From: Candidatus Hecatella orcuttiae | Lineage (GTDB): Archaea; Thermoproteota; Bathyarchaeia; Hecatellales; Hecatellaceae | Direction: 5' to 3' | Length of the DNA stretch: 64,000 bases | Assembly: GCA_002011035.2 (NCBI GenBank) | Contig: MTLY02000001.1 | Location: 32,001-96,000, forward strand | Shown here: positions 1-41,541 of the stretch, one piece after another | How positions within the stretch are numbered: the first letter of the stretch is position 1 | Layout: each line of letters begins with the position of its first letter | Made by a program: the position numbers and the translations under genes | The notes under the pieces: model-generated | Database searches by the model: none | What the model was told of the DNA's origin: nothing | What the model saw: only the letters and a program-made list of their open reading frames with translations

Positions 1-160
1 ATAGGAGTTCGCCGCCCATTTCCCTGAACATTTTAATGGCTAAGGGAGCGGTCCCGTCATGAGCCATGGCCAAGTCTACCTCAGCCACCACCAGCTCGCC
101 TTGCTCTACGTTCTTCCCCGATGCCCTCGAAAGAATCTTCTCCGTTATGGTCTTTCCCAT
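1..160 (-). CDS. 3-isopropylmalate dehydratase/homoaconitase large subunit, N-terminal part (runs off window)
   Basis: Manual translation from ATG at 160: MGKTITEKILSRASGKNVEQGELVVAEVDLAMAHDGTAPLAI, the typical LeuC/HacA N-terminus (T-x-x-EKI, HDGT). Not in the ORF track. Confidence 0.85.
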   Translation of the reverse strand, partial: MGKTITEKILSRASGKNVEQGELVVAEVDLAMAHDGTAPLAIKMFREMGGELL

Positions 161-296
161 AAGTGTCTTGAACTCCTCTTATGGTGTTGGAATTAAAGGA
201 AAAATGCTGAGAAAAGATATATACCTTACTAGAAAGCCCTTTTAGATAGGCTTTAAAGCCCACGGACAAATTAAACAAGCTGGGAAAATCTCCAAT

Positions 297-998
297 TTGA
301 CCCTCGCAAAATTGAACAAAGAATTTTTACTGGAGATTTTGAAGTACACAAAGGAAAGCGATGTCCTACTTGAGGACGTGTTATTATCCAACACTTTTCT
401 ACCTTCCCACACAGCCAGAGACCAGTTGAACCAACTCGCTGTTCAGAGGCTTATTTCCAGAGAGGGAAACCGCCTAAAAATTTCGCCAATCCAGAAAGTA
501 GATCTGGCGGTTCAAGCCTTAAGGCTGGGTTTAACCCTCGGCTCTGTCTGCCGATATCTGACTTGGCAAGAGTTTGAAAAGGTAACAGCCTACGCTTTGG
601 AGAAAAACAACTACCATGTTTTAGCCCACTTGAGGGTGAAAATGAACGGAGAATGGAGTGAAATAGATCTTCTCGCCGTTCAAAATTGGCTTGCGTTAAT
701 GATAGACTGTAAACATTGGAAAACCCACCTAAACAGGTCGAAGGTTCAGAGAATAGTGGACATGCAACTGAAGAGACTGGAGGCTCTGTCATCTCCTAAG
801 AACTTGAAGAAAATCGAGGTTGAATTAAAAATGAAGCTTCCACCTTGTTTGAAGGCAGTTCCGGTGGTTGTAACTCTGCTGGAGGTTAACTACCTTGTCT
901 ACAGAGGAGTTCCCATTGTTCCTATATCCAAGTTCGGCGGCTTCCTCAATGAGGTGCTGGGCTGCTGGGAGCTTTTTTCATTCAAATCCCTGACCTGA
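297..998 (+). CDS. PD-(D/E)XK restriction-endonuclease-like protein (Mrr/NERD-like) with N-terminal winged-helix-like region
   Basis: Motifs WQEFE, EIDLLA and IDCKHW match the E...D...(D/E)xK nuclease pattern. Confidence 0.65.
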   Translation: MTLAKLNKEFLLEILKYTKESDVLLEDVLLSNTFLPSHTARDQLNQLAVQRLISREGNRLKISPIQKVDLAVQALRLGLTLGSVCRYLTWQEFEKVTAYALEKNNYHVLAHLRVKMNGEWSEIDLLAVQNWLALMIDCKHWKTHLNRSKVQRIVDMQLKRLEALSSPKNLKKIEVELKMKLPPCLKAVPVVVTLLEVNYLVYRGVPIVPISKFGGFLNEVLGCWELFSFKSLT

Positions 999-1076
999 AG
1001 CACCCTCGCTTATGCGGCTTCGTAAGTTTAATATGGAAAAGGATGTTTACTGGTTCAGATGGCCGTGGGTTGAAGC

Positions 1077-1619
1077 TTGGCTGACCTAAGTTTCATCATC
1101 TCTTCAGCCATCATCATGGTGCCGGCCTATCTAGCCAACGGCATGCCTGTCCTTTTTGGGGGTGGGAGGCCCATCGACGGAGGAAAGAATTTCTTCGACG
1201 GTCGGAGGCTTCTAGGAGACGGTAAAACGGTGAGAGGAGCTGTTGCAGGGGTGATGTTTGGGGTGGTAGGCTGCCTTTTGACAGCGAGTTTCCTGAATTT
1301 GGTAACCACTCAGTCTTTCCCTCTGCCTCTTTACGCTCTTTTAGGGTTGGTCGTAGGCTCAGGTACAGTTTCAGGAGACCTTATAGGGGCTTTTATCAAA
1401 AGGAGAGCCAATCTTCCCCGAGGAGCCCCAGCGCCCGTGCTAGACCAGCTGGGATTCATTTTAGTGGCTCTGCTTTTCATCTACCTCTTTAACCTAGCTG
1501 TTCCCTTACTAACTCTGACCGTAGAGGTCTTTTTCGCCGTTTTGGTGGTAACGCCCTTTATTCACATAACTGCTAACGTGATCCTTTTTCTTTTAGGGAA
1601 AAAAAAAGAACCTTGGTAG
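1077..1619 (+). CDS. carS: CDP-archaeol synthase
   Basis: PAYLANGMP, PIDGGK..DGRRLLGDGKT, GDLIGAFIKRR and LDQ motifs; multiple hydrophobic helices. Confidence 0.92.
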   Translation: MADLSFIISSAIIMVPAYLANGMPVLFGGGRPIDGGKNFFDGRRLLGDGKTVRGAVAGVMFGVVGCLLTASFLNLVTTQSFPLPLYALLGLVVGSGTVSGDLIGAFIKRRANLPRGAPAPVLDQLGFILVALLFIYLFNLAVPLLTLTVEVFFAVLVVTPFIHITANVILFLLGKKKEPW

Positions 1620-1867
1620 TTTTCTGGTTTTTTAGAAAACTTTATTTGAAAGCCATCAACCTAGAAACTTTTGGGGCTTTGAAAGAGAAATTCTTTAAAT
1701 TTTTAAGGTTTGGGTCTAAATTTTTTAAACTGAAATGTATAATAATGAAGCTTCCTGAAAATATTCCTAATTTCGGCTTTATATTTTAAATTAATCGTGT
1801 CTAAAGGATTTATTCTGAGGAAAAACTTTAATAAGAAAAATTAAAAACATCTAAAAACGTAAAAACC

Positions 1868-2542
1868 TTGCATGTTAAGGAAAGGGAGGCAAATCATAGA
1901 AAGTTGGCGTATCCGATACATGGACTGTTTCTGCCTAAAAAATTCTTTCTGACCAGCGGATGCGCAACCAGTTCTACGTCTCCTCTAAACGCCTTTGACG
2001 CCGCCCTCATCAAGGCGGGAATAGGACAATGCAACCTTGTGAGCGTGTCTTCCATACTTCCCCCAGACGCGGAGAAAATGGAGAGCTTTGAAATCACACC
2101 TGGCACCATCACGTTTTGCGTTTTAGCTCGAATGGACGGAGATCCCGGGGAGACCATCGGCGCAGGTATAGGATGGGCCTGGGGCATCACAGCAGATGAA
2201 AGAAAATATGGAATCGTCGCTGAGGCTCACGGGTATAAAGATCGGGAAGCCATCGATAGGGAGTTAAAATGGAAACTTCAGGAGATGGCTAAACTCAGGC
2301 AGATGCGCTTAATTCATGTTGAAACAAAACCTGAATGTTTAGAGGTCCCTAAGGGGAAATATGGCAGTGCAACCGTCGCCCTTGTCTACGTACCATGGGA
2401 GTTGGAAGAAACTCAGCGAACCATTGCTAGGGAATCCTATATGGTCCCTGAGGAATTGTTAAAGATGGAAGCAGTTACAGCGAAGGTAAACAATAATTCG
2501 GGGTCTCTTAAACTTCAAAACAATTCCCGCCTTAAGACATAA
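1868..2542 (+). CDS. pdaD: Pyruvoyl-dependent arginine decarboxylase
   Basis: LNAFDAAL..AGIG..NLVSVSSILP with the Ser-Ser self-cleavage site; true start may be TTG at 1904. Confidence 0.88.
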   Translation: MHVKEREANHRKLAYPIHGLFLPKKFFLTSGCATSSTSPLNAFDAALIKAGIGQCNLVSVSSILPPDAEKMESFEITPGTITFCVLARMDGDPGETIGAGIGWAWGITADERKYGIVAEAHGYKDREAIDRELKWKLQEMAKLRQMRLIHVETKPECLEVPKGKYGSATVALVYVPWELEETQRTIARESYMVPEELLKMEAVTAKVNNNSGSLKLQNNSRLKT

Positions 2543-2583
2543 GAAAAACTTTAATCACTGAAGACTATATTTCCTAAACTGCC

Positions 2584-4323
2584 GTGGTTCAATTTAAAGA
2601 ACTCTGCGAATTATGTGAGCGTTTAAGTCAAGTCTCCAGTAGAATTTCCAAGATAAACCTAGTAGTAGAATTTCTCAAAAGGGCAGACTTGGAGGAGATT
2701 TCTGCAGCCATTTCCCTTATCATGGGGAACCTCCCCAAAGCTTACGGGCAGCCTTTGAACCTCAGCCATTTGACTCTTTACCGCACTGTATTGAGGATGA
2801 CCAAGGTGGAGGAGGAGAAATTTTTCGGCGAATTTAGCCAAACAGGGGATGTAGGAGAAACTGTTAAGAGAATTCTCGAAAAATATCCATCTAAAACGCA
2901 AAAACTCCTCAAAGATGAGCCCATAACTTGCCGAGAAGTTGCTGAAGCCCTTCAGCAGATAGCGGAATTTACAGGAGCGGGCGCTCGGGTTAAGAAAGAA
3001 AGGCTGCTGGAAAGCCTCTTAGGCAGGGTAAGCCCGTTGGAAGCGAAATATTTGGTGAAGAATCTGCTGGGGGAAATGAGGCATGGATTCGGCGAAGGCC
3101 TCATGGAGGAAGCTTTAGCCAGAGCCTTCAATATCGGAGTTGAAAAGATCCGCATAGCCCACATGTCTATAGGGGACTTGGGGCGGCTGGGGAGACTGTT
3201 GAAATCCAAAGGACAGGCTGGTTTAGAGGCGGCGGTCATAGTTCCCTTTCATCCTGTAAAGCCTATGTTGGCCGAACATGCTGAAAGCTTAGAAGAAGTG
3301 CTTAGGCAGCACGGGGGAAAAACATGTTTAGAAGACAAGTTAGATGGGGTTAGAGTGCAGATTCATAAGGTAAACTCTGAAGTTCGCATTTACAGTCGAA
3401 GATTGACGGAGGTTACAGATTCTTTCCCAGAGGTCTCCAAGACGATAAAGGAGAAGGTGCAGGCAAAAGAAGCCATAATAGACGGGGAAATAGTAGCCGT
3501 GGATCATAGAGGCCGCTTTCAACCATTTCAAGAAATTATGAAAAGATACGGGCGAATTAAAGAGACCTATGACTTCGCTAAGCATGTCCCTGTCGCCCTC
3601 TTCTTATTCGATATTCTCCACCTAAACGGGATGCCTCTTATCGATAAACCCCTGATGGAAAGAAAAGCCATATTGGAGAAGATTGTTCCTTCGCGGATGC
3701 TTGTCCGCAGCCTAACCGCTGTAAGCCTCGACGAAGCTAGGAGATTTTTTGAAGAAGCCATAGGTAGAAGATGCGAAGGCGTTGTAGCCAAGCGTCCAGA
3801 TTCTACTTATACCCCGGGCATCCGCGGGAAAAAATGGCTGAAAATAAAGCGGCCTCCCTACACTTTAGATCTTGTAATTGTGGCGGCGGAGTACGGCTAT
3901 GGATATAGGCATAAGTGGCTTAGTGATTATTACCTGGCAGCAAGCGTTCAAGATGGTGAAAAGAAAGACTCACCCACAACCTTTCCAGAATACGTGGAAG
4001 CCTTCCATGGCGGCAAGTTTGAAATAGTTGGGAAAACTTTCAAGGGTTTGACTAACGAAGAAATCAAAACTCTCACCCAAAGGCTTCAAAACATAGCCCT
4101 CAAAACTGAAGGAAGGGCGGTCATAGTTAAGCCTGAAATAGTGGCGGAGATAGCCTTTTCGGAGATTCAGCGGAGTCCCCAGTACAGCAGCGGCTACGCC
4201 CTCAGATTCGCCAGAATCATCCGTATCAGAGACGATAAAACCGTAAGCGAGATCAGCAACCTGAAAGATGTTGAGCGAGTTTTCCTCACTCAGCATAGGG
4301 TCCAAGATTTTGGACGGGTATAG
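2584..4323 (+). CDS. lig: ATP-dependent DNA ligase
   Basis: Motif I EDKLDGVR, IIDGE, EGVVAK, WLKIK and ALRFAR..R.DK; archaeal N-terminal DNA-binding domain. Confidence 0.96.
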   Translation: MVQFKELCELCERLSQVSSRISKINLVVEFLKRADLEEISAAISLIMGNLPKAYGQPLNLSHLTLYRTVLRMTKVEEEKFFGEFSQTGDVGETVKRILEKYPSKTQKLLKDEPITCREVAEALQQIAEFTGAGARVKKERLLESLLGRVSPLEAKYLVKNLLGEMRHGFGEGLMEEALARAFNIGVEKIRIAHMSIGDLGRLGRLLKSKGQAGLEAAVIVPFHPVKPMLAEHAESLEEVLRQHGGKTCLEDKLDGVRVQIHKVNSEVRIYSRRLTEVTDSFPEVSKTIKEKVQAKEAIIDGEIVAVDHRGRFQPFQEIMKRYGRIKETYDFAKHVPVALFLFDILHLNGMPLIDKPLMERKAILEKIVPSRMLVRSLTAVSLDEARRFFEEAIGRRCEGVVAKRPDSTYTPGIRGKKWLKIKRPPYTLDLVIVAAEYGYGYRHKWLSDYYLAASVQDGEKKDSPTTFPEYVEAFHGGKFEIVGKTFKGLTNEEIKTLTQRLQNIALKTEGRAVIVKPEIVAEIAFSEIQRSPQYSSGYALRFARIIRIRDDKTVSEISNLKDVERVFLTQHRVQDFGRV

Positions 4324-4335
4324 TGCTCTCCAAAA
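4308..4335. other. Left dif/att-like recombination site (11-6-11): TTTTGGACGGG-TATAGT-GCTCTCCAAAA
   Basis: Imperfect inverted arms around a 6-bp spacer; 22/28 identical to the site at 6510-6537; contains the lig stop codon. Confidence 0.6.
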
Positions 4336-4443
4336 AATCGAAAACTGTGAAGTAGGAAGTTTTCCATAAATTTTCCGGATCTTTTCTTGTTGGAGGTTAG
4401 GGGGTAAAATGGAAAAGTTTTTGGAAATGAAAGGGCTCTTAAA

Positions 4444-4481
4444 ATTTTTCCGTATATATGCAGAGTGCAATACGGAAAAAT
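4444..4481. promoter_or_regulatory. Perfect 12-bp inverted repeat abutting the integrase promoter
   Basis: ATTTTTCCGTAT-N14-ATACGGAAAAAT immediately before a TATA-like TTATATA (4484-4490). Confidence 0.55.
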
Positions 4482-4494
4482 CCTTATATAACAA

Positions 4495-5550
4495 ATGAAA
4501 TCACCCATAATTATTCCGGTGGAAAACATGCAAGACCTCCTAGCCTACGAGTCTGTTCGATCTTGGATGAGCAATTTCCCAGACAGACCTAACACCAAAA
4601 AAGTCTATCTATTTAGGCTGTCTAAGTTCTGTCAGTGGATAGGGAAAGACCCTGACACCTTAATTCGAGAGGCTGAAAAAAATCTTTCCGCTGCACATAA
4701 TCAGCTGAAAGAATTCTACAATAAGCTGCTGGGAGAAGGTAAAAGTCTAAAGACAGCGAGCACATCTTATCAATGCTTAAGGTCTTTCTATCGCTGGAAT
4801 GACGTGATCCTGCCTCGGGCACCGCGAAGTTTCAAAGGCCGGGTAGAATTCGCCTCCCGACGAGTTCTAAGCCAGCAGGAAATCAGCATTATGGTAGGTG
4901 CATGCTCCACCATAAGAGACAAAGCTCTGATAACCTTCCTAGCTCAATCTGGCCAGCGAAGCGGGGTTTTAACGGCTTTAAAATATAAACATGTAAGAAG
5001 AGGACTTGAAAATAATGAGAACCCGCTGCTGGTGGAAGTTCCAGCTGTGCTTAGAAATGACAAAGGAATTAACATCAACAAGCTGGGTGAAGCCTACAGG
5101 TTTGCGGTAGGGAGAGACTCGATCATGTTTTTGAAGATGATGATAGAAGAACGTCGAAGGGACGGTGAACCTATCGACGGGGAAAGCTGGCTTTTTAGGA
5201 GCTACTCTAAAGGCGGTGAAAACGGAAAGTCGACGCCTACAAAAATTTCTAAAAGTGAAAGGGGTCCCCCTTTAACATCTGTTTCCATCAGAGAAATAGT
5301 TCACGAGGTCGCCCTAAGAGCTGGAATTCAAGGGAAGGCCTCGGATAAACGCTACGAGATATATCCTCATGTCTTCAGGAGATACTGGAACATGAGAATG
5401 CAGGAAGCAGGCCTCAGCGAAGATTTAAGGGAGTATATGATCGGGCATAGAGTCCCCTACGAGGGCGCCTACAGTAGATGGTATCCCGACGCCATAAGGC
5501 GGGAATGGAAAGCTAAAAATGTCGAAAAATATCTCAGCCTTCTCTTATAA
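4495..5550 (+). CDS. Tyrosine recombinase / site-specific integrase
   Basis: SAM-like N-terminal domain; catalytic R (SGQRSG), K, HxxR (YPHVFRR), H (MIGH) and Y (GAYSR). Likely true start is ATG 4528 after GGTGG. Confidence 0.9.
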   Translation: MKSPIIIPVENMQDLLAYESVRSWMSNFPDRPNTKKVYLFRLSKFCQWIGKDPDTLIREAEKNLSAAHNQLKEFYNKLLGEGKSLKTASTSYQCLRSFYRWNDVILPRAPRSFKGRVEFASRRVLSQQEISIMVGACSTIRDKALITFLAQSGQRSGVLTALKYKHVRRGLENNENPLLVEVPAVLRNDKGININKLGEAYRFAVGRDSIMFLKMMIEERRRDGEPIDGESWLFRSYSKGGENGKSTPTKISKSERGPPLTSVSIREIVHEVALRAGIQGKASDKRYEIYPHVFRRYWNMRMQEAGLSEDLREYMIGHRVPYEGAYSRWYPDAIRREWKAKNVEKYLSLLL

Positions 5551-5565
5551 ACGCCTCTCCAGTTA

Positions 5566-5805
5566 TTAGGGCGAAGAGGAGATGTCCCTAAATTTATTAT
5601 ACTTTAGTAGGGTTTTTTTGGATGCTCGCTGAATTATCAGTTTCCTATTTTTAATTTTAACACTAACCCATACTAGGTCTTCTTTGAAGGGGAAACTTGA
5701 GTCGTCAACCAACTTTGTTGGCAGATAGATTCTCGGCGAAGAATAGCTTCGTCCATTTTTCAGCAGTTTTTTTGCTACGGTAAATTTTGCCAGACACTCT
5801 TTCAA
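5566..5805 (-). CDS. Small basic protein, AbrB/MazE-like swapped-hairpin DNA-binding candidate
   Basis: SPRIYLPTKLV..FPFKEDLVWVSVKIKNRKLIIQR resembles the AbrB-type 'rixiP...l.i' pattern. Confidence 0.5.
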   Translation of the reverse strand: MKECLAKFTVAKKLLKNGRSYSSPRIYLPTKLVDDSSFPFKEDLVWVSVKIKNRKLIIQRASKKTLLKYNKFRDISSSP

Positions 5806-5856
5806 GGCTTATCACGTTTTACTTCGTAAATACTGTTTCAATATCATTAGAAAAGT

Positions 5857-6288
5857 TTATAAAATTTTCCTTCGCAAAAATCTCAGAAAATCTAGCTTAC
5901 TTAAAACTCCTTTCTGCTGAAAGTTTTCAGGTGGAACGGATTTTTTGAGCGGCCTTACTGAGTCAATGACGGAATTATGTATAAATCGTAATATTTCTTC
6001 TTCAAGCTGATTAAAATTTGGAATAAAAACGTAAATGTTGGAAGGAATATATACCATAAAAGGTAATCTGAGTGTATTAGAGTAAAGGCCCTCGGAGGTT
6101 TTTGTGTATATCTTCAAGCTGATTTCCTCCCGATCACGCGGTGACTGGTCTGGGTTATACTCTATTTCAAACGTCCATTCTTGGGGAAGCCTGCGTTGCA
6201 AATATTTCTTCAGAAGAGTGACTAGAGTTTCCCCGTATTTTAAGGCAAACTCCTTCCTTTCTCGTAGGGGTATGGGAAACTTGGGCAC
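5857..6288 (-). CDS. Hypothetical protein (element cargo)
   Basis: 143-aa ORF with GGTGGAG upstream; no recognised motif. Confidence 0.5.
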   Translation of the reverse strand: MPKFPIPLRERKEFALKYGETLVTLLKKYLQRRLPQEWTFEIEYNPDQSPRDREEISLKIYTKTSEGLYSNTLRLPFMVYIPSNIYVFIPNFNQLEEEILRFIHNSVIDSVRPLKKSVPPENFQQKGVLSKLDFLRFLRRKIL

Positions 6289-6509
6289 CTTTCGCCATCT
6301 CCACCTTGAACTAGGCTCACCAGTGGTAAAGTCTACGGAAGCACATAAGTTTATTTAAGCTTGAATAAGCGACTTGGAACTGCTAAGTTGCAACTTATAT
6401 TAAATAGTGTTGAAAGTTGAAGGAACAGAACCTGAGTAACGTAGGTTTGTGCCCCTTTGCAGAAGTTTTCCGTAATCTTGTTTTTTGCGCGTCTCCGCCG
6501 TTTTCGATT

Positions 6510-6537
6510 TTTTGGACGGTTATTAAACCCTCCAAAA
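6510..6537. other. Right dif/att-like recombination site (11-6-11): TTTTGGACGGT-TATTAA-ACCCTCCAAAA
   Basis: Arms are 10/11 inverted-identical around a 6-bp spacer; overlaps a perfect 22-bp palindrome ACCCTCCAAAATTTTGGAGGGT (6527-6548). Confidence 0.62.
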
Positions 6538-6583
6538 TTTTGGAGGGTAGAAGCGTGATGCGTCCCAGCTTTGCAGATTGACC

Positions 6584-7057
6584 TCATGATTCCAGTTCTT
6601 TCAAAATAGCATCAACAACCCGAAGACCGGCTTCCCGAACTTTCGCCGTTATCCGCTTCGTGAAGACGGAGAAATCTTTTATTTCTATGGCGTAGACCAC
6701 TATTTCTTTCGGCATTCTATTGGGAGCATAGTTTTCACCAAGTCTTAAAGCGGTGGCGAAATTCAAGTCATGGGAGGAAGAAAGGTGACGGGTGCTGTCA
6801 AACTCCGAGGGGGAAAGCCTAAATATTCGGCCTACCTCAGTCTTTCCAGTTGCTATGGCGTCTACAACTATCACTTTATCGTAGTCCAGCATTTCCTCTA
6901 TGAGCCTTAATCCTCCCGCACTGGCCTCCTTGACATCGATGTCTGTGCGGCGGCGCAACCGTTTTTTTAAATCTCGAGCAACCTGTATGCCTATCCCATC
7001 GTCTCCTAAGATTTCATTGCCTACGCCCAGTATCAAAGTTTTCAACTTGATCTTCAA
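6584..7057 (-). CDS. Hydrogenase maturation endopeptidase (HycI/HybD family)
   Basis: GVGNEILGDDGIG, IVVDA and SSHD motifs; directly downstream of mvhA. Confidence 0.92.
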   Translation of the reverse strand: MKIKLKTLILGVGNEILGDDGIGIQVARDLKKRLRRRTDIDVKEASAGGLRLIEEMLDYDKVIVVDAIATGKTEVGRIFRLSPSEFDSTRHLSSSHDLNFATALRLGENYAPNRMPKEIVVYAIEIKDFSVFTKRITAKVREAGLRVVDAILKELES

Positions 7058-7151
7058 CAGATCAGTAAGCGATGGGCAGATAAAGATTACGAAGTAAACT
7101 TCCAGCGCCTAAATATAAAATAGAGGAATAGTTAAACTTCAAAATAAAAAA

Positions 7152-8612
7152 TTAGAAGCGCGTCAACCTCTTCTTGAGCTTTCCGCGACTATCGTAAATG
7201 TCAACTTCAAGAGGCATCTGACCGGGCAGCGTGTGGGTGGCGCAAGCGAAACAGGGATCGTAGGCTCGGAAAGCCATTTCCACCATGTTTAGTATTCCCG
7301 GCGACACTTCACCGTTCTTGATTAACCCCTCTGCCGCTTTTTTAATGGACATGCATATAGCGGCATGGTTATTGGTAGTACCCACTATAAGGTTAACTTT
7401 CTGCACGATCCCCCTTTCATCAGTCTGATAATGGTGGTAAAGAGTGCCACGGGGAGCTTCAACAACGCCTACTCCCTCGCTAGGGGTCTCAGTTATTGGT
7501 CTTCTAACGTTCGGATCTGTTATTTCAGAATCTTGGCTGAGTTCCAAGAGTCTTTCCGCAGCGTAAAGCAATTCCACCAAACGGGCCCAGTGAAAGGCTA
7601 GGGTAGCATGCACGGGCTTTCCGCCTAAGGTTTCGTATAGTTTTTCATACTGCTCCTGAGCAAGAGGCGTCGCCATTCCGTCCGCGGCGTTAAGCCGTGC
7701 GAGAGTGTTGGCGCGGTAGACTCCGCTGTTTTTACCGTCTACAAAACCCTTCCATCCCACTTTTTTTAGGTACGGGAATTTCAGGTAAGACCAAGGTTCC
7801 ACTCGTTCTTCAAGATGATTTAAATAGTCGGAGGCTGGGAATTTCACGAACTCATTGCCGTCCGGGTCTACAACCCTGATTTTTCCGTCGTAAAAGTTCA
7901 CTCGGTTTTTGTCGTCCACCAGACCCATGTAGTAGGTTTTGTGCGTGTAAGTGTCTCCGGTGATGAGGTCCACGTAGGTCTTGTTTTTGAGGACTATGTC
8001 TTCAAAAAGTTTCAAGGAGAACTGCGCAAATTTGACTTCCTCTTTTGCCATTTCCTCTATTCTAGCTCTTTCCGTTTCTTTCAAGGGCTTACTTATTCCG
8101 CCGGGAACACCGAAAGTTGGATGAACTTTCCTCCCGCCGATCATGGACACGATCTCCAAGGCGTCCATTCGCTGTTTTATCACGTACTTTCCGGCTTCCA
8201 CACCTACTTTACGTATCACGCCGAAGATGTTTCGCTCCTCCGGAGGCGCCTCGGGGCCGACGACGAAGTCGGGGCCGCCTAGAATGTAAAAATGAGTGGT
8301 ATGATCGTATACGTAGAAAGCACTGTAGAGGAGTTCCCTGAGTTTTTTAGCCGCGGAACTAGGCTCCACGTTGAAAACAGCATCTAATGTTTTGGTGGAG
8401 GCCATATGGTGGGCTTCAGGACAGACACCGCAAATGCGCGCGGTTATGTCCGGCATTTCCTCTACAAATCGGCCTTCGCAGAATTTTTCGAAACCCCTTA
8501 GCTCGGGGACTTGGAAGTAGGCATTGGCCACATTGCCTCTGTCGTCTAGAAAGATACTTATTTTCCCATGACCTTCAAGCCGGGTTATAGGGTCTATGGT
8601 TACTGTTTTCAT
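7152..8612 (-). CDS. mvhA: [NiFe]-hydrogenase group 3c large subunit
   Basis: TRLEGH, L1 RICGVC, APRG, L2 DPCFACATH followed by a cleavable C-terminal tail. Confidence 0.93.
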
Positions 8613-9565
8613 TTTCTTACCCTCCCAAGAATGGATTTGGTTAGAGTAAACTTGTAGAACTTACCTAGGGGGTCTATTACTTTGCCTAGGGCTTCCTTTA
8701 TCTCCTCTTCATCTGTGGAATCCAAGTTTGAGGCTAAGGCCGAAAGCATCTTGGCGCCTTGGTCTTCAATGTTAGGCGAAGGCCCATAGCATCCCCAACA
8801 AGGCATGTTAGCCTTGGGGCACAATGCCCCACAGCCCCCTCTCGTGGCAGGCCCCATGCAGATGACACCTTGCTCTAGAAGGCACTGCTCTTGGTCGGGG
8901 ACGATTTCGTAAGGTCGGTAGATGGTCTTGAATTTGTTCCCCAATCTTTTCCTTTCACATTCATGGCAAAGCGCCCTGTCTGAGGCTCCCACAACTGAGC
9001 CTTTCGGCGGCAGTTTCCCGCTGACGATGGCTTGGATGGCATTCCAAACTTGCTCTCCAACAGGCGGGCATCCGGGAACATAATAGTCCACATCGACAAC
9101 TTCGTCGAGGGTGGAAACATTTTCCCTCAACTCAGGTAACTCCAACTCCCCTTCAGGAATTGAGTATTTCGGCTGAGGCTCCACCTTTTCCGGATTGATT
9201 GTGCTTGGAGTTTCATGGTAGGCTCTGGTGAAGATGTCTTTGACGGTGGTGGCGTTTCCTAAGCCGGGGATACACCCATCTACGGCGCAGGAGCCGAAAG
9301 CTATCATCACCTTAGACTTAGCCCTCAGAAGCTTAGCTACATGCTCATCTTCGCGATTACGAATGGCCCCGTTGAAAAAGCAAACGTCTATGCTTTTGTC
9401 TTCCATTTTCTCCACATCGGAAAATTTGAAGTCCACAGCCGCAGGCCAGAAGACTATGTCAGCAACAGCCATGACATCCAATACTTTTTCCCCTATTTCG
9501 AGAACTGATATTTCGCAGCCTCCGCAGGAAGCAGCCCAGTAGAAGCCCAGTTTCAACTTTCCCAT
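8609..9565 (-). CDS. mvhG: [NiFe]-hydrogenase small subunit
   Basis: SCGGC, GSCA, PGCPP, CHEC, CLL..G.ICMGP and CWGC motifs. Confidence 0.93.
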   Translation of the reverse strand: MGKLKLGFYWAASCGGCEISVLEIGEKVLDVMAVADIVFWPAAVDFKFSDVEKMEDKSIDVCFFNGAIRNREDEHVAKLLRAKSKVMIAFGSCAVDGCIPGLGNATTVKDIFTRAYHETPSTINPEKVEPQPKYSIPEGELELPELRENVSTLDEVVDVDYYVPGCPPVGEQVWNAIQAIVSGKLPPKGSVVGASDRALCHECERKRLGNKFKTIYRPYEIVPDQEQCLLEQGVICMGPATRGGCGALCPKANMPCWGCYGPSPNIEDQGAKMLSALASNLDSTDEEEIKEALGKVIDPLGKFYKFTLTKSILGRVRK

Positions 9566-9567
9566 TT

Positions 9568-9999
9568 TTACCGTCCCTCCTTCTTGCCAGTGTTCCAGTT
9601 TAACGGCCCTAGTTGTCTGATTTTCTCTGTCATCTCATGAACTGTTTTGGCGAATTTTTCTCCCTCGGAGGCTGAGATCCATTCTAGCCTCACTCTCTCT
9701 TTCTCTATGCCGAACTGCTCCAGAAGCCTTGAAAGGAGAGTGTACCTTTTTAACATCATATAGTTCCCTTCCATGTAGTGGCAGTCTCCCGGGTGGCATC
9801 CTGCAATGAGAACTCCGTCAGCCCCTTGGGCTAGAGATTTAATTACGAATGTTGGGTCTATTCTGCCTGTGCAGTTAACTCGGATCGTGTACACGTTAGG
9901 TGGGTATTCCATCCTGCTTGTACCAGCCAAGTCGGCTCCCGCGTAGGCACACCACCGACACAGGAAACCGATTATTTTAGGTTCAAACTTCTCTCCCAA
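9568..9999 (-). CDS. mvhD: Methyl-viologen-reducing hydrogenase delta subunit [2Fe-2S]
   Basis: CRWCAYAGAD, CTGRID, GCHPGDCHY and WISASEG motifs. Confidence 0.95.
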   Translation of the reverse strand: MGEKFEPKIIGFLCRWCAYAGADLAGTSRMEYPPNVYTIRVNCTGRIDPTFVIKSLAQGADGVLIAGCHPGDCHYMEGNYMMLKRYTLLSRLLEQFGIEKERVRLEWISASEGEKFAKTVHEMTEKIRQLGPLNWNTGKKEGR

Positions 10000-10014
10000 T
10001 CAAAACACCCCTTT

Positions 10015-13000
10015 TTAAGTGGCCAAAATTCCCTCCACTTCCGCGTAAATCTGTTTATCTGTGAAACCTTGCTGTTTAATGGCGCTTGAAGGACATGCGG
10101 CAACGCAGACCCCGCAAGCTTTACAGAGGGTTTCTTGCACCACCGCCACTTCTTTTTCCTCGTCAAATTCTATTGCATTAAAGGGACAGGCTCGAATGCA
10201 AACCCGGCAGGCGGAGCAAAGGTTCTCATCAACTACCGCTATATCTGGCTCAACTTCCACTTTACCACGGTCGATAAGCGAGAGCGCCTCAGCTGCAGCT
10301 GCTCCTCCTTGAGCCACCGAGTCAGGTATGTCTTTAGGCCCTTGGCAGGCTCCTGCTATGTAGATGCCGTCGTTGGCCGTGGAGACTGGGGCTAACTTCG
10401 GATGTCTTTCTAGGAAGAAGCCGTCTCTGCTTCGGCTGAGAAGGAATGTTTTAGCGATCTTGTCGCTGTCTTTCCTCGGCTCCAAGGCTACGCTGAGAAT
10501 GACCATGTCCACCGGAATCCGCCGCACTACTCCGAGGAGGGTGTCCTCGCATACTACGATGAGTTTTCCCTCTTCTTCTGGGGTTTCAGCGAAATCTGTA
10601 ACCTCAGCGCCCTTACCTCTTATGAAAATCACTTCCTCGTTCATCACTCTCTTATAGAATTCTTCATACCCTTTGCCGAAGGCTCTGATGTCGATGTAGA
10701 GTTCGTAAACTTTAGCATCGGGTAGTTTCTCCCTAACTAGGTGAGCGAATTTCATGGACTGCATACAACATATCCGGGAACAATATTCGTGGTAGTTTTC
10801 ATCCCGGCTTCCGACGCAGTGGAGGATGGCTATGCTTTTAGGTGCCTCTCCGTTTTTGAGGGTTATCTTACCGCCAGTAGGCCCTGAAGCATTGCACATC
10901 CTCTCAAATTCGAGTGAGGTTACAACATTATCATAGACTCTATAACCGTACTGCCGAGCGATAGAGGGATCGAAAACGTCGAATCCTGTGGCTACAATGA
11001 CGGCTCCAACATCTATCTCCATCACTTCATCTTTCATCTCATGGTTAATTGCCTCCAGATCGCAGGCTTTAACGCATTCCAAGCATTCGGAACATATTCC
11101 GCAATCCATGCAGCGGTCAGCTTCACTTTTAGCTCGCTCGATGTCATAGCCTCGGACTACTTCGCTGAAATCTTTTATCCGCGCGCTAGGCTCTGCAACT
11201 TGAGGCTCAATCCGCTCCTGAACAGGGAAACGTTCTCTGAATTCCGCGATCTGCTCTTCGCTAGGTTCACGGGGAGCCTTCACTTCTTCCGGGGTGGGAG
11301 CTAAAGGCTCTCCTTTCAGGTATCTGTCAATGGACTGGGCGGCCTTTCTACCAGCAGCCATGGCATCGATGACGGTGGCAGGACCAGTTACCACGTCTCC
11401 TCCTGCGAATACACCTTCCAGATTGGTGGCTAGAGTGGCCTCGTCGACCTTCAGCGTCCCCGCGGGGGAAAGCTCTAAGCCTATCTCTTTGACGAATTCT
11501 AGGTCGGGTGTTTGGCCTATAGCAGCGATGAGGTTGTCTACTTCGATGGTGAATTCTGAACCTTCAATGGGAATAGGCCGCCGGCGCCCGCTGGCGTCAG
11601 GAGGGCCTAACTCCATCCGGATACATTCCACTTTTGATATTCGGCCTTTCTCCGCAATGATTCTTTTCGGAGCCACGAGGAACGTTAATTTAACGCCTTC
11701 CATTTCAGCAGCGTGAACTTCCTCCTTGCTGGCAGGCATCTCTTCGCGGGAACGCCTATAGAGAATAGTTGTAGAACTCCCCAGCCTAACTGCCACTCTA
11801 GCAGCGTCGATAGCAGTGTTTCCTCCGCCGACGACCACCACCCTGCGTCCCAGCTGAACTTTTTCACCCATGTTCACTCTGCGGAGAAAATCTAGGCCGG
11901 GGATAACGCCTTCCGAGTCTTCCCCAGGAATTCTGAGGCTCACACTCCGCTGAGCCCCTGCAGCCAAGAAGATGGCCTGGTATTTTTTCTTCAATTCCTT
12001 AAATCGAATCTGTTTTCCTACTTTAACGTTTGTCTTAATTTGCACTCCAAGCTTTTCAATGTAGCCAATGTCCTTGCTGAGGATGTCTCTGGGAAGACGG
12101 TAGGCGGGTATCCCCATCCGCAGCATTCCACCCGGTTCGCTAGCAGCTTCGAATATGGTGACATCATATCCCATGAGGGCTAGGTCATGAGCTGTGGTAA
12201 GACCTGCTGGACCTGAGCCTATGATGGCGACTTTCTTACCGTTTTTAGTTATGGACGGTATCTCTATTTCTTCAACATCAACCTGGTCAGCTGCAAATCT
12301 TTTGAGGGCGGCTATAGACAGAGGCTCGTCGACATATCTGCGGTTGCAGACGTTTTCACAGGGATGATAGCACACCCGGCCGCAGACGGCAGGGAGGGGA
12401 TTAGTTTTCCTGATGAGCTGGTAAGCTTCTTTGAATTTACCTTCAGCGATGAGGGCTAGATACCCCTGAACATCTTGATGGATGGGACAAGCTAACTTAC
12501 AGGGTGGAGTCTCCTTTTTGGAGATGAGGAAAGTATGAGGAACTGCCTGGGGAAACGGCATGTAAATGGCCTTGCGAAGGCCGAGGCCTAAGTCGAATTC
12601 GCTGGGTACTTCAACTGGGCAGACGTTGAGACATTCTCCACAAGCAGTGCATTTTTCAGGGTCTACGTATCTGGCTTTCTTTCTGATTTTGACCTTAAAG
12701 TTGCCTGCGAAACCTGAAAAGCCTTCAATCTCACTGTAAGCCAGTAGCTCAATGTTGGGGTTACTTCCAACCAAAGACATCTTGGGAGTGAGTATGCATG
12801 CAGCACAGTCTAGAGTTGGGAAAGTTTTATCAAACTGCGCCATGTGGCCGCCTATGGTGGGCTCTTTTTCTACTAGGTAGACTTTTTTACCGGAATCAGC
12901 AACTCTAAGAGCCGCCTCGATCCCGGCTATGCCTCCGCCCACAACCAATGTGTTCGGGTTCACACTGAAAGTTTTGATCTCCAAGGGCTCATGATGGGAA

Positions 13001-40362: not shown

Positions 40363-41541
40363 TTATCCGCTCAGTAAGGCTTCTCCAAGGCGGGCTGCGA
40401 ACTCGGGATGGCTCTGCAGTTTCTTTCCAACCTTTTCGATGTTGAAGCCGCTGGCTAAGTTCACAATATCTTCTCCAGTCAAGATTTCAGCCAGCTGGTT
40501 TAACTCCGAGTCCCCCAGCTTCTCTATCAGTTTGAGGGAAAGGAGGCTGTTGGCTATGCGCCTACTCCAGTAGGCGTATCGGCGGGGGTATTCTTCCAGG
40601 TCCACGTCTCCCTGAACAGCCGCCCGCCCGGCTACCTCCCCCGCTATTTTTCCAGCCACGATGGAGGTGTGAATTCCCCCGCCAGTCAGGGGGATAACTT
40701 GCCCTGCAGCATCCCCGCAGAGGAGCACACCTTCCCCGTGGACCACCCGGCCGATCTGTCCTCCCACTGGAACAGGGGCTGCTTGAATTTCCACAACTCT
40801 CGCCTTCTCAAACTTGGCGGGATGAGCTGCTATAAATTTGTCTAGGTAAGGTTTTGCAGGGGCTCCCCGGACTCCGATGCCCACGTTGGCCGAGCTCTCG
40901 CTTTTTGGAAAAATCCAAGCATAACCCAAGGGAGCGACTTCATGGCCTACGTAGGTCTCCAAGACATGGGGGTCGTCTAAGCGGCAGTTAACCATCTTAT
41001 ATTGGACGCAGGGAATAACCTCGTATCCTTCTCTGCTGAAAAATTTCTTCGCCACCAAAGAAGTGACGCCGTCACATCCGACCAGCATCTTACACTTTAT
41101 CTCTCCGGTTTCGCCGAGCCGCTTCACCTTCAAGCGGAAAAGCCCCTGATTTTTTTCGACGTCTAAAACCGTCGCCCCCACTAGGATTTCAGCTCCCTGC
41201 TGAACTGCTTGGCATGCCAGTTCTTGGAGGAAGAGCTTCTTCTCCAAAAGGAAGCCTTCGCTGAAGCCCAGCTCCTCGGAGTAAATTTCAACCTTTTTCT
41301 CTTCGTTGGGAGCGTAGACCATGATGCCTTTCACTCTGTTGCAGATGAAACGGGGTGAGGGGTCTATCTCGGCGTCTGCTAACGTAGAGCCTGAAACAGC
41401 TTCCCCGCAGACCTTTGCCCCTAGGCTCCGCTCCTTCTCTAGGAGGAGAACTTCAGCTCCTGTTTGAGCTGCTTTCCGCGCAGCCATCAGCCCAGCCGGA
41501 CCTGCGCCTACCACCGCCACGTCGAAGGTTTCTTGGCTCAA
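40363..41541 (-). CDS. Geranylgeranyl reductase family protein (digeranylgeranylglycerophospholipid reductase)
   Basis: GAGPAG, PLGYAWIFP (PxxYxWxFP) and GDAAG..P..GGGI motifs. Confidence 0.85.
   Translation of the reverse strand: MSQETFDVAVVGAGPAGLMAARKAAQTGAEVLLLEKERSLGAKVCGEAVSGSTLADAEIDPSPRFICNRVKGIMVYAPNEEKKVEIYSEELGFSEGFLLEKKLFLQELACQAVQQGAEILVGATVLDVEKNQGLFRLKVKRLGETGEIKCKMLVGCDGVTSLVAKKFFSREGYEVIPCVQYKMVNCRLDDPHVLETYVGHEVAPLGYAWIFPKSESSANVGIGVRGAPAKPYLDKFIAAHPAKFEKARVVEIQAAPVPVGGQIGRVVHGEGVLLCGDAAGQVIPLTGGGIHTSIVAGKIAGEVAGRAAVQGDVDLEEYPRRYAYWSRRIANSLLSLKLIEKLGDSELNQLAEILTGEDIVNLASGFNIEKVGKKLQSHPEFAARLGEALLSG

Follow-up and report, generated by a model that had tools for sequence, protein, structure and literature searches.

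A tyrosine recombinase gene between two four-box palindromic sites at a conserved chromosomal locus of Candidatus Hecatella orcuttiae

Positions 4301-6544 of the 64,000-nucleotide stretch of Candidatus Hecatella orcuttiae DNA analysed here (the window) carry the gene of a tyrosine recombinase together with two smaller genes, orf79 and orf143, enclosed by two copies of a specific palindromic site. This discrete cassette was recognised in an earlier note on the same DNA, and its outline stands. Our preferred explanation, to which we give about an even chance of being correct, is that the cassette is a chromosome-resident, self-contained site-specific recombination module acting between identical copies of a site on two DNA molecules. 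The structure of the site, the residence of the module at one locus among relatives and the divergence of paired sites in their centres are presented below, followed by the observations that favour other explanations. The positions of all features are collected in Table 1.

The repeat finder detected two 28-bp sites at 4308-4335 and 6510-6537 (family D5), identical at 22 of 28 positions (79%), and a 52-nt imperfect inverted repeat covering both ends of the cassette (pair I1). Between the two inner arms there is a perfect 17-bp inverted repeat. Each outer arm is a 14-bp palindrome in itself (4301-4314 and 6531-6544), and the two palindromes are alike at 13 of 14 positions. The sites, the inner repeat and the outer palindromes had been placed correctly in the earlier note, including the identity of 22/28. 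When related loci were aligned, the conserved unit was seen to be a longer one of 42 bp with four boxes of 5 nt, in the order box 1 TCCAA, W4, box 2 TTGGA, a centre of 13 or 14 bp, box 3 TCCAA, W4, box 4 TTGGA. Across 17 aligned sites (the window and related loci) boxes 2 and 3 were invariant or nearly so, the outer boxes followed T-N-C-N-A and T-N-G-N-A, and no conservation was detected outside the 42-bp unit. The centre is weakly palindromic and varies among the 17 sites. Reading the 28-bp sites as 11-6-11 is one possible parsing, and on sites with 13-bp centres it leaves a 5-bp spacer. Over 42 bp the window pair can be aligned almost equally well in the direct (28/42) and the inverted (32/42) orientation; the two 14-bp centres are alike at 8 of 14 positions when direct and at 5 of 14 when inverted. 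When the adjoining flank is included, the right half of the right site gives a perfect 22-bp palindrome (6527-6548); this palindrome lies downstream of hycI, 36 bp from its stop codon.

The site is rare. The half-site pattern with a 14-bp gap had 2 exact matches in the window, compared with 0.12 expected from shuffled sequence; a further match with one mismatch, at 41222, was unrelated. In the whole genome (1.75 Mb on three contigs) the pattern occurred at these two places only and the reversed-pattern control gave 0 matches. A scan for four-box sites with at least 16 of 20 box letters returned the same two, so that the search for additional copies proposed in the earlier note found none. As that note had also stated, there is no tRNA target and the integrase is not split: no tRNA gene was found in positions 1-12000, and the reading frame of the integrase is intact. 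No Rfam match was obtained in 3500-7500. Two other roles for the site were considered and rejected. A general terminator was ruled out because there are only 1-4 copies per genome. A replication origin with ORB-like boxes was rejected because the spacing differs, no orc1/cdc6 gene adjoins and the genes converge there. On viral contigs three chance-like matches to the site pattern were found, all in unrelated sequence and with no related genes.

To place the module among relatives we searched 13 other genomes of the family ("Ca. Hecatellales") and 27 genomes of 18 other families. Orthologues of the recombinase (61-67% identical, E <=1e-146) were present in 8 of the 13 family genomes; the best match in the 27 genomes had an E value of 2.9e-24. 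All eight orthologue loci have the same upstream neighbours, either carS, pdaD and the ligase gene (six loci) or carS and pdaD (two genomes of genus g3), and the order carS, pdaD, (ligase), site, recombinase recurs in the genera g1, g3, g5, g6 and g7. A four-box site is located 160-690 bp upstream of the recombinase in seven of the eight genomes. At the eighth locus, in G005 (L038 about 4960-5060; L053), a scaffold gap of exactly 100 N occupies the place where the site is expected, and the assembly was perhaps broken there by the palindrome or by a structural variant. Five more loci with site and recombinase were found in metagenomes (L063, L064, L066, L067 and L095), these being the ones with enough upstream sequence. 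At the loci of distant recombinase homologues (36-45% identical) neither a four-box motif nor a strong upstream palindrome was found, so the site does not characterise the protein family at large.

The recombinase is single-copy in the window genome, whose two other tyrosine recombinases are 26-33% identical to it. The ratio of nonsynonymous to synonymous substitution rates (dN/dS) was 0.089 in the one unsaturated pair of orthologues (G002/G007) and 0.03-0.05 in two pairs in which dS was near saturation; three pairs gave no estimate. For orf79 the ratio was 0.10-0.13 and for orf143 0.07-0.26. Judged by these ratios the recombinase is under purifying selection. Most relatives have one site only, among them G002, G004, G006, G007, G008 and G013. 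Seven genomes of other families possess the ligase and lack the recombinase, and in them nothing that follows the ligase gene resembles the site (12-14 of 20 box letters at best). The earlier note had named synteny in the relatives, with no empty site, as the observation that would speak against a mobile cassette. This is largely what was found, as no intact empty target follows the ligase in these seven genomes. A Tn916-like or recently mobile element could thus not be upheld, given the single copy, the same locus in 8 of 13 relatives, the purifying selection and the mostly single site. From gene order and sequence comparison we concluded that the module is a long-term resident of one locus and not a recent arrival.

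Several genomes have two or more sites (Table 1). The metagenome locus L063 contains the same three-gene cassette as the window in flanks that differ on both sides. Both species of genus g6 have site 1 by the ligase and site 2 by Thg1/CitG. In the window and in the unrelated cassette of G019 the inner arms are perfect inverted repeats (17 bp and 14 bp, respectively) with a TCGAA box, and the outer arms have perfect boxes, those of G019 being alike at 12 of 14 positions. Paired centres differ throughout. Compared in direct orientation, the number of like positions out of 14 was 8 in the window, 2 in G019, 7 in G009, 5 and 7 in L063 and 7 in G001, and within the six genomes of family f26 that have bracketing pairs it was 4-8 of 13. 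In the five genomes of genus g41 that were compared, the centres of site 2 were alike at 9-12 of 13 positions and those of site 1 at 4-9 of 13, and the f26 site-2 centres differ from the site-1 centres. On the strength of these comparisons we regard the two-site states as stable.

Two further pairs deserve description. In G202 (L199 5189-5528) two sites are only 256 bp apart with no open reading frame (ORF) of at least 70 aa listed between them; the pair lies between the side with orf79 and a 147-aa protein and the cytidylyltransferase gene, and it looks like a two-site platform without cargo. G080 has two equally oriented sites (L190, 5175-5215 and 6719-6759) on a contig of 1.98 Mb. Their centres are alike at 9 of 13 positions by eye, and they bracket a 219-aa ORF, HD-like as read from its translation, and one of 126 aa. 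Two further sites are found on that contig at 0.89 and 1.64 Mb.

The site is not restricted to the family. A pattern of boxes 2-4 matched 70 of 401 Bathyarchaeia genomes, compared with 8 for the reversed control, with matches in 10/13 genomes of f1, 33/59 of f26, 5/10 of f22, 4/7 of f30, 2/2 of f7 and 2/2 of f23. There is mostly one palindromic site per genome, matched on both strands, and a few genomes have 2-4. We examined the neighbourhood of 20 such loci, 8 of them from f26. All eight f26 loci begin with the same order: an HD-domain gene, an orf79 homologue, a 147-aa protein, site 1 and a PF00589 gene, which is of a type of about 200-250 aa in seven loci and of a 359-aa type in one. A 127-135-aa protein comes next in seven of the eight, and a cytidylyltransferase-like gene closes the block in seven. 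The second site was found in six of the eight loci, with the PF00589 gene between the two sites in five. Some of these blocks have HNH or GIY-YIG ORFs inserted, and L186 has two partial PF00589 ORFs on opposite strands. The 440-aa recombinase of the window genome (G000:C3:298417-299265; L002 1447-2769) is 48% identical to the 359-aa enzyme of G082 and has no four-box site nearby. In G017, a genome without a window-type recombinase, the site locus comprises a toxin-antitoxin-like run of AbrB/RHH plus PIN-like gene pairs.

How such a module might work can be outlined from known systems. The four-box site is presumably the target of the recombinase. By the rule for simple tyrosine recombinases given in PMC8371274, the enzyme would bind the inner boxes and cut in the centre. 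Given their different central regions, the left and right sites are doubtful partners for recombination, and two sites that share arms and differ in their centres would probably be inert to each other and form a stable pair. For the excisable or invertible cassette suggested in the earlier note this means that the symmetry of inner and outer arms fits, while the differing centres make a reaction between left and right doubtful. The productive reaction would instead take place between two identical copies of one site on two molecules. On sister chromosomes the outcome could be the resolution of dimers, which is what XerS achieves at difSL. If DNA bearing the same site came in, the reaction could lead to integration or, in two steps, to a swap of the segment between the sites, as has been proposed for the Xer-site cassettes of Acinetobacter. 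Dimer resolution and segment exchange would be non-exclusive outcomes. The window module could accordingly be seen as the Hecatellales version of a Bathyarchaeia-wide system in which one or two sites at a fixed place often bracket a recombinase. A wider proposal, which we put forward tentatively and consider rather improbable as a whole, is that Bathyarchaeia possess a docking platform of one or two heterospecific sites at which unrelated recombinase genes and small genes are swapped, a natural counterpart of cassette exchange and a possible substitute for dif/Xer, with the window unit as an autonomous cassette docked there.

The relation to XerA and the position on the chromosome bear on a role in dimer resolution. 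Against the archaeal XerA model NF040815 the recombinase scored 61.9 bits, where the cut-off is 220 bits, and the best stretch covered residues 32-167 only. XerA is still the nearest family by profile, with matches to the Thermoplasma and Pyrococcus XerA structures (PDB 5hxy, E 2.9e-11; 4a8e, E 7.2e-09) that cover the N-terminal part of the recombinase only. Membership of the housekeeping XerA family, which the earlier note had considered, is thus not indicated, even though no profile family is nearer. No match to the XerA model over the cut-off was obtained in any of 41 related genomes, and the window-type recombinase was the only tyrosine recombinase matched in the XerA-model search of G002 (100% complete) and G004. 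On the window contig (535 kb) the maximum of the cumulative gene-strand bias is at the recombinase gene and that of the cumulative GC skew at 38-40 kb. After these peaks both fall over about 410 kb; only 36 kb of the contig lie to the left of the module. In G007 the contig maximum is at most 6 kb from the site. Both orc1/cdc6 genes of the window genome are located on another contig. A terminus-like position is suggested for the Hecatellales loci, not in general.

A number of observations weigh against the explanation that we prefer. The block imposed by different centres is reasoned from other systems. Dimer resolution is made less compelling by the 16 of 41 relatives that have no match to the XerA model even at E <=1e-5, so that an Xer-like function is not universal in the class, and by the position of some sites: in G002, of the same genus as G007, the site is at a merely local maximum, and in G336 the single site is in the middle of 400 kb of uniform strand bias with no switch. 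A simple picture of one enzyme and one site is weakened by the recombinases that adjoin the site, which come from unrelated families. The site-adjoining enzyme of about 225 aa has no BLASTP similarity to the window recombinase, the 359-aa enzyme in the two-site cassette of G082 is of another recombinase type, and in G017 it is a serine recombinase gene (PF00239, 96.7 bits; L174 4782-5536) that ends 9 bp before a perfect site. Good sites also occur in G019 (98% complete) and G024 (94%), in which no tyrosine or serine recombinase was detectable, and G001 has lost the recombinase and kept the sites and orf79, so that the enzyme is dispensable there. Finally, the recombinase tree of G009 conflicts with its host genes, from which we conclude that the gene moves between lineages.

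This last case was followed across the locus. G005 and G009 belong to one genus and are 92% identical in pdaD, 74% in the ligase, 87% in orf143 and 87% in an IPMS-like protein, while their recombinases are only 63% identical. In the recombinase tree G009 falls inside the g5 clade (100/100) together with G008 and L067 (96/91), and G005 falls in another clade (95/98). The swapped stretch in G009 ends between the recombinase and orf143, before site 2, and coincides with a LAGLIDADG gene. Since orf143 is outside the swapped stretch, movement driven by the integrase fits the G009 swap less well than homing with co-conversion, or homologous recombination, would. The LAGLIDADG gene is a 130-aa single-motif ORF between the site and the recombinase and is present in G009, G008 and L067, that is in 3 of the 15 ingroup loci of the tree. 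Its score of 23.3 bits against PF00961 is just over the cut-off of 23.1 bits. The recombinases linked to it form one clade whatever the host genus, which suggests that homing carried the recombinase allele along.

The movement of the G009 gene also enters the case for an active minimal integrative element, an explanation that we consider unlikely. The two sites would then be attL and attR, produced when a 2.2-kb circle with a symmetric attP recombined with a symmetric attB, and the element would be excisable, orf79 and orf143 perhaps helping. The TCGAA inner arms and perfect-box outer arms of the window are what a cross of attP and attB would be expected to leave, and the same asymmetry is seen in the unrelated cassette of G019. 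The three-gene cassette of L063 in other flanks and the arrival of the G009 recombinase from another genus are in favour as well. So are the seven ligase loci of other families without a site, which imply that the site arrived with the module, and G039 of another family, in which mvhD/hdrA follow the ligase within 1.4 kb as if the module were absent. An element of this kind should however share an identical core, and the centres agree at 8 of 14 positions in the window and 2 of 14 in G019. It would also have to be reconciled with one and the same locus in five genera, mostly with a single site, with a single copy per genome, with purifying selection over deep divergence, with a cassette that has no replication or transfer genes and with viral contigs on which the site pattern, in three chance-like matches, occurs without related genes. 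The G009 swap itself stops short of site 2, at the LAGLIDADG gene, and points to homing or homologous recombination. An invertible segment, in which the sites would act as inverted repeats and the recombinase would flip the 2.2-kb stretch as a switch, we regard as highly improbable. The slightly better inverted alignment over 42 bp (32 compared with 28) and the perfect inverted repeat of the inner arms would suit it, but the centres are alike at only 5 of 14 positions in that orientation, the recombinase has a constant orientation relative to the upstream ligase and pdaD in all orthologous loci, most relatives have only one site, and no outward-facing gene or promoter is apparent whose expression would change.

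The points raised above by sites without a recombinase, and by recombinases of unrelated families beside the same site, would be accounted for if the sites were operators or architectural sites for small DNA-binding proteins, above all of the orf79 type, and recombinase genes had gathered at an insertion hot spot. We consider this quite unlikely. Across families, no gene accompanies the site more constantly than that of the orf79 family, which was seen in the window, L063, three g5 genomes, G001, G019 and 13 of the 20 further loci. The arms are 14-bp palindromes with box centres 9 bp apart, an arrangement typical of dimeric regulators. A weak lead from the ESM Atlas (score 0.86) connects orf79 to MazE/AbrB-type proteins. 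Against it, the genera g3, g6 and g7 have site and recombinase and no orf79 anywhere in the genome (E <=0.001), while orf79 homologues occur in six genomes without sites (G015, G022, G027, G032, G037 and G039). Nor do the sites overlap promoters: they are located at 3' ends of unrelated genes, and 160-690 bp separate them from the start of the recombinase gene. They also edge variable segments, the G202 pair included.

Among known systems the closest analogues are XerS/difSL and the Xer-site cassettes of Acinetobacter. XerS/difSL resembles the module in being a single tyrosine recombinase of about 350 aa beside its own atypical palindromic site (PMC5357621). According to the same source, xerS adjoins difSL and the two are inherited as one chromosomal module; here a site likewise adjoins the recombinase in the window and in seven of eight orthologue loci. 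Differences are that the XerS model NF003462 gives no match to the window recombinase (E <=0.01), that difSL has 31 bp compared with the 42-bp four-box element and its 13/14-bp centre, and that one site would be expected where two or three are seen in the window, in G009 with G005 and in L063. With XerA/dif the module has in common a simple recombinase whose N-terminal domain is SAM-like, and a site in which palindromic arms enclose a short centre. The dif site of Thermococcales is flanked by inverted repeats and is not adjacent to xerA (PMC2958812), and archaea are described as lacking FtsK (PMC8371274). The site described here differs from dif in sequence and length (42-bp four-box compared with 28 bp) and is present in two copies.

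The paired sites themselves have a parallel in the pdif modules of Acinetobacter, in which genes lie between two palindromic Xer-type sites, often inverted or with divergent centres; the pairs described here have conserved arms and divergent centres, and the content between them varies. According to PMC11705084, cassettes whose Xer sites are inverted or diverge in their centres do not undergo excision, plasmid Xer sites with different centres were shown not to recombine together, and exchange is proposed to proceed via cointegrates, by two intermolecular events. Bracketing of the same kind was seen in the window, G019, G009, L063, G001 and six f26 genomes. The pdif modules are plasmid-borne and need the chromosomal XerCD and FtsK; in the present case the platform is part of an archaeal chromosome, and the cassette usually contains the recombinase gene. 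Integrative mobile elements exploiting Xer (IMEX), such as CTX, TLC and GGI, integrate at dif and are left between two dif-like sites, one of them often degenerate (PMC5357621). The cassettes of G019 and G001 are similar to these in carrying no recombinase. IMEX use the host Xer, whereas the window cassette encodes an enzyme itself, and besides this enzyme no Xer of the host was found.

With Tn916-type, SSV1 and pNOB8 elements the window module has in common a tyrosine recombinase and ends with inverted symmetry. Varied targets and copies would be expected of a Tn916-type element, and the module is single-copy at one fixed locus. No excisionase (Xis) or transfer genes were found in the cassette, and its two small ORFs match no Pfam, NCBIfam or PHROG family; one of them may be a novel excisionase. 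In SSV1-type elements att is inside the integrase gene, which becomes split, and the 351-aa frame of the window is intact. The pNOB8/lambda type has an identical att core, commonly in a tRNA gene, in contrast to 28/42 identity and no tRNA gene in 1-12000. An integron is not indicated either, since the integron integrase model TIGR02249 gave no match to the window recombinase and the sites are all of one family.

Table 1. Features of the recombinase module in the window, with site arrangements and associated genes at related loci
Feature	Position	Strand	Remarks
ATP-dependent DNA ligase (left flank)	2584..4323	+	Pfam DNA_ligase_A_M 199.8 bits plus A_N and A_C domains
Left four-box site	4301-4342	.	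14-bp centre; box 4 in degenerate TCGAA form
Inner arm of left site	4329-4345	.	17-bp perfect inverted repeat with 6500-6516
12-nt direct repeat, copy 1	4358..4369	+	repeat family D16; contains TTTTCCRTA; partner 6464-6475
Inverted repeat, 12 bp perfect (4444-4455 / 4470-4481)	4444..4481	.	pair I18; beside TATA-like run, just 5' of recombinase start
Tyrosine recombinase	4495..5550	+	PF00589 38 bits (cut-off 27.1 bits); longest frame 351 aa
orf79 (79 aa)	5566..5805	-	conserved; no Pfam, NCBIfam or PHROG match
orf143	5857..6288	-	conserved (five homologues aligned); no Pfam, NCBIfam or PHROG match
12-nt direct repeat, copy 2	6464..6475	+	repeat family D16
Right four-box site	6503-6544	.	box 1 in degenerate TTCGA form
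HycI hydrogenase maturation protease (right flank)	6584..7057	-	PF01750 54.4 bits
Arrangement, window			left site, recombinase, orf79, orf143, right site
Arrangement, L063 (metagenome)			argG, site, argH, orf106, site, recombinase, orf79, orf143, site, citG, SUI1
Arrangement, G009			second full site 4.6 kb downstream, past IPMS-like and Thg1-like genes
Arrangement, G005 (genus of G009)			site at same Thg1/CitG boundary, on another contig
Arrangement, G001 (98% complete)			degenerate and good site around 2.6 kb with orf79, without recombinase
Arrangement, G019 (another family, 98% complete)			1.3-kb cassette: 127-aa ORF and orf79 between two sites
LAGLIDADG ORF	L041 6886-7281	-
LAGLIDADG ORF	L040 1281-1673	-
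LAGLIDADG ORF	L067 3746-4153	+
f26 block loci	L181-L186, L192, L200

The recombinase probably starts at the ATG at 4528, giving 340 aa, because the database form has 340 aa and the orthologue alignments begin at residues 11-13. Its catalytic set R, K, H-x-x-R, H, Y was invariant in an alignment of 34 homologues, and its N-terminus gave only weak matches to SAM-like core-binding domains. Both sites are outside the frame, 153 bp upstream and 953 bp downstream. The inverted repeat just 5' of the gene looks like an operator; upstream of the orthologues, palindromes are kept in position and are different in sequence. The motif TTTTCCRTA has 9 matches in the window compared with 1.42 expected, four of them in the cassette (4360-4368, 4446-4454, 4471-4479 and 6466-6474). 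Two of these four build the 12-bp inverted repeat and one is near each end, and the copies are candidate operator or accessory binding sites.

The orf79 protein has 22 positions that are invariant across seven homologues, and the family is present in 15 of 41 related genomes, some of them without sites. It is possibly an AbrB/MazE-like DNA binder; the ESM Atlas assignment to MazE_antitoxin that gives this lead is below the level of trust. The AlphaFold model of orf79 was of poor quality (pLDDT 64.6, and below 50 in the conserved motif) and gave no structural match. For orf143 the model was of pLDDT 73.8 with an alpha+beta fold, and no significant match was found in the PDB (Foldseek best E 0.12; VIA-align wide search best Z 6.5, in the noise range). 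It is unrelated to the 147-aa protein that flanks the f26 sites (hhalign probability 0.1%).

The last codons and the stop codon of the flanking ligase gene are inside the left site. The tail of the ligase that the site encodes is not conserved, since alignments to relatives run no further than residues 565-575 of 579. The other ATP-dependent ligase of the genome (G000:C2:238663-240393) is 33% identical to this one. The ligase beside the module has a patchy distribution across the class; in genus g3 it is missing from this position, and pdaD directly abuts the site. Past hycI, on the minus strand, the genes were named by reading translations, not by family search, as [NiFe]-hydrogenase subunits, MvhD and HdrA. 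The GC content of the cassette (0.35-0.46) is slightly below that of the flanks (0.43-0.52), a difference that is not decisive. Assembled metagenome contigs from four runs (X4-X7) over 3800-7100 were identical to the window and contained no joint; such contigs drop rare variants. The contigs of run X5 end at 4296 and restart at 4315, inside the left site, and the three other runs read through one or both sites.

The earlier note had called the element possibly undescribed. This agrees with our search, in which no description of the module or the site was found in full-text literature, supplements excluded; the protein group could be listed in the family tables of the PMC8371274 supplement. The literature found on Hecatellales appears to concern metabolism. 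A single recombinase with an adjacent site is a known kind of system, and the class-wide two-site architecture appears to be undescribed.

Bathyarchaeia are abundant archaea of sediments, and no canonical XerA was present in the 41 genomes searched. A rare and defined site beside recombinases is a concrete candidate for dimer resolution and DNA uptake in this class. In annotation, the presence of the window "integrase" should not lead to the call of a recent mobile element. If it is true that paired sites with different centres are inert to each other, these loci would represent natural cassette exchange at heterospecific sites in archaea, and the system would supply compact pairs of recombinase and site (340 aa, 42 bp) from lineages of subsurface and marine metagenomes.

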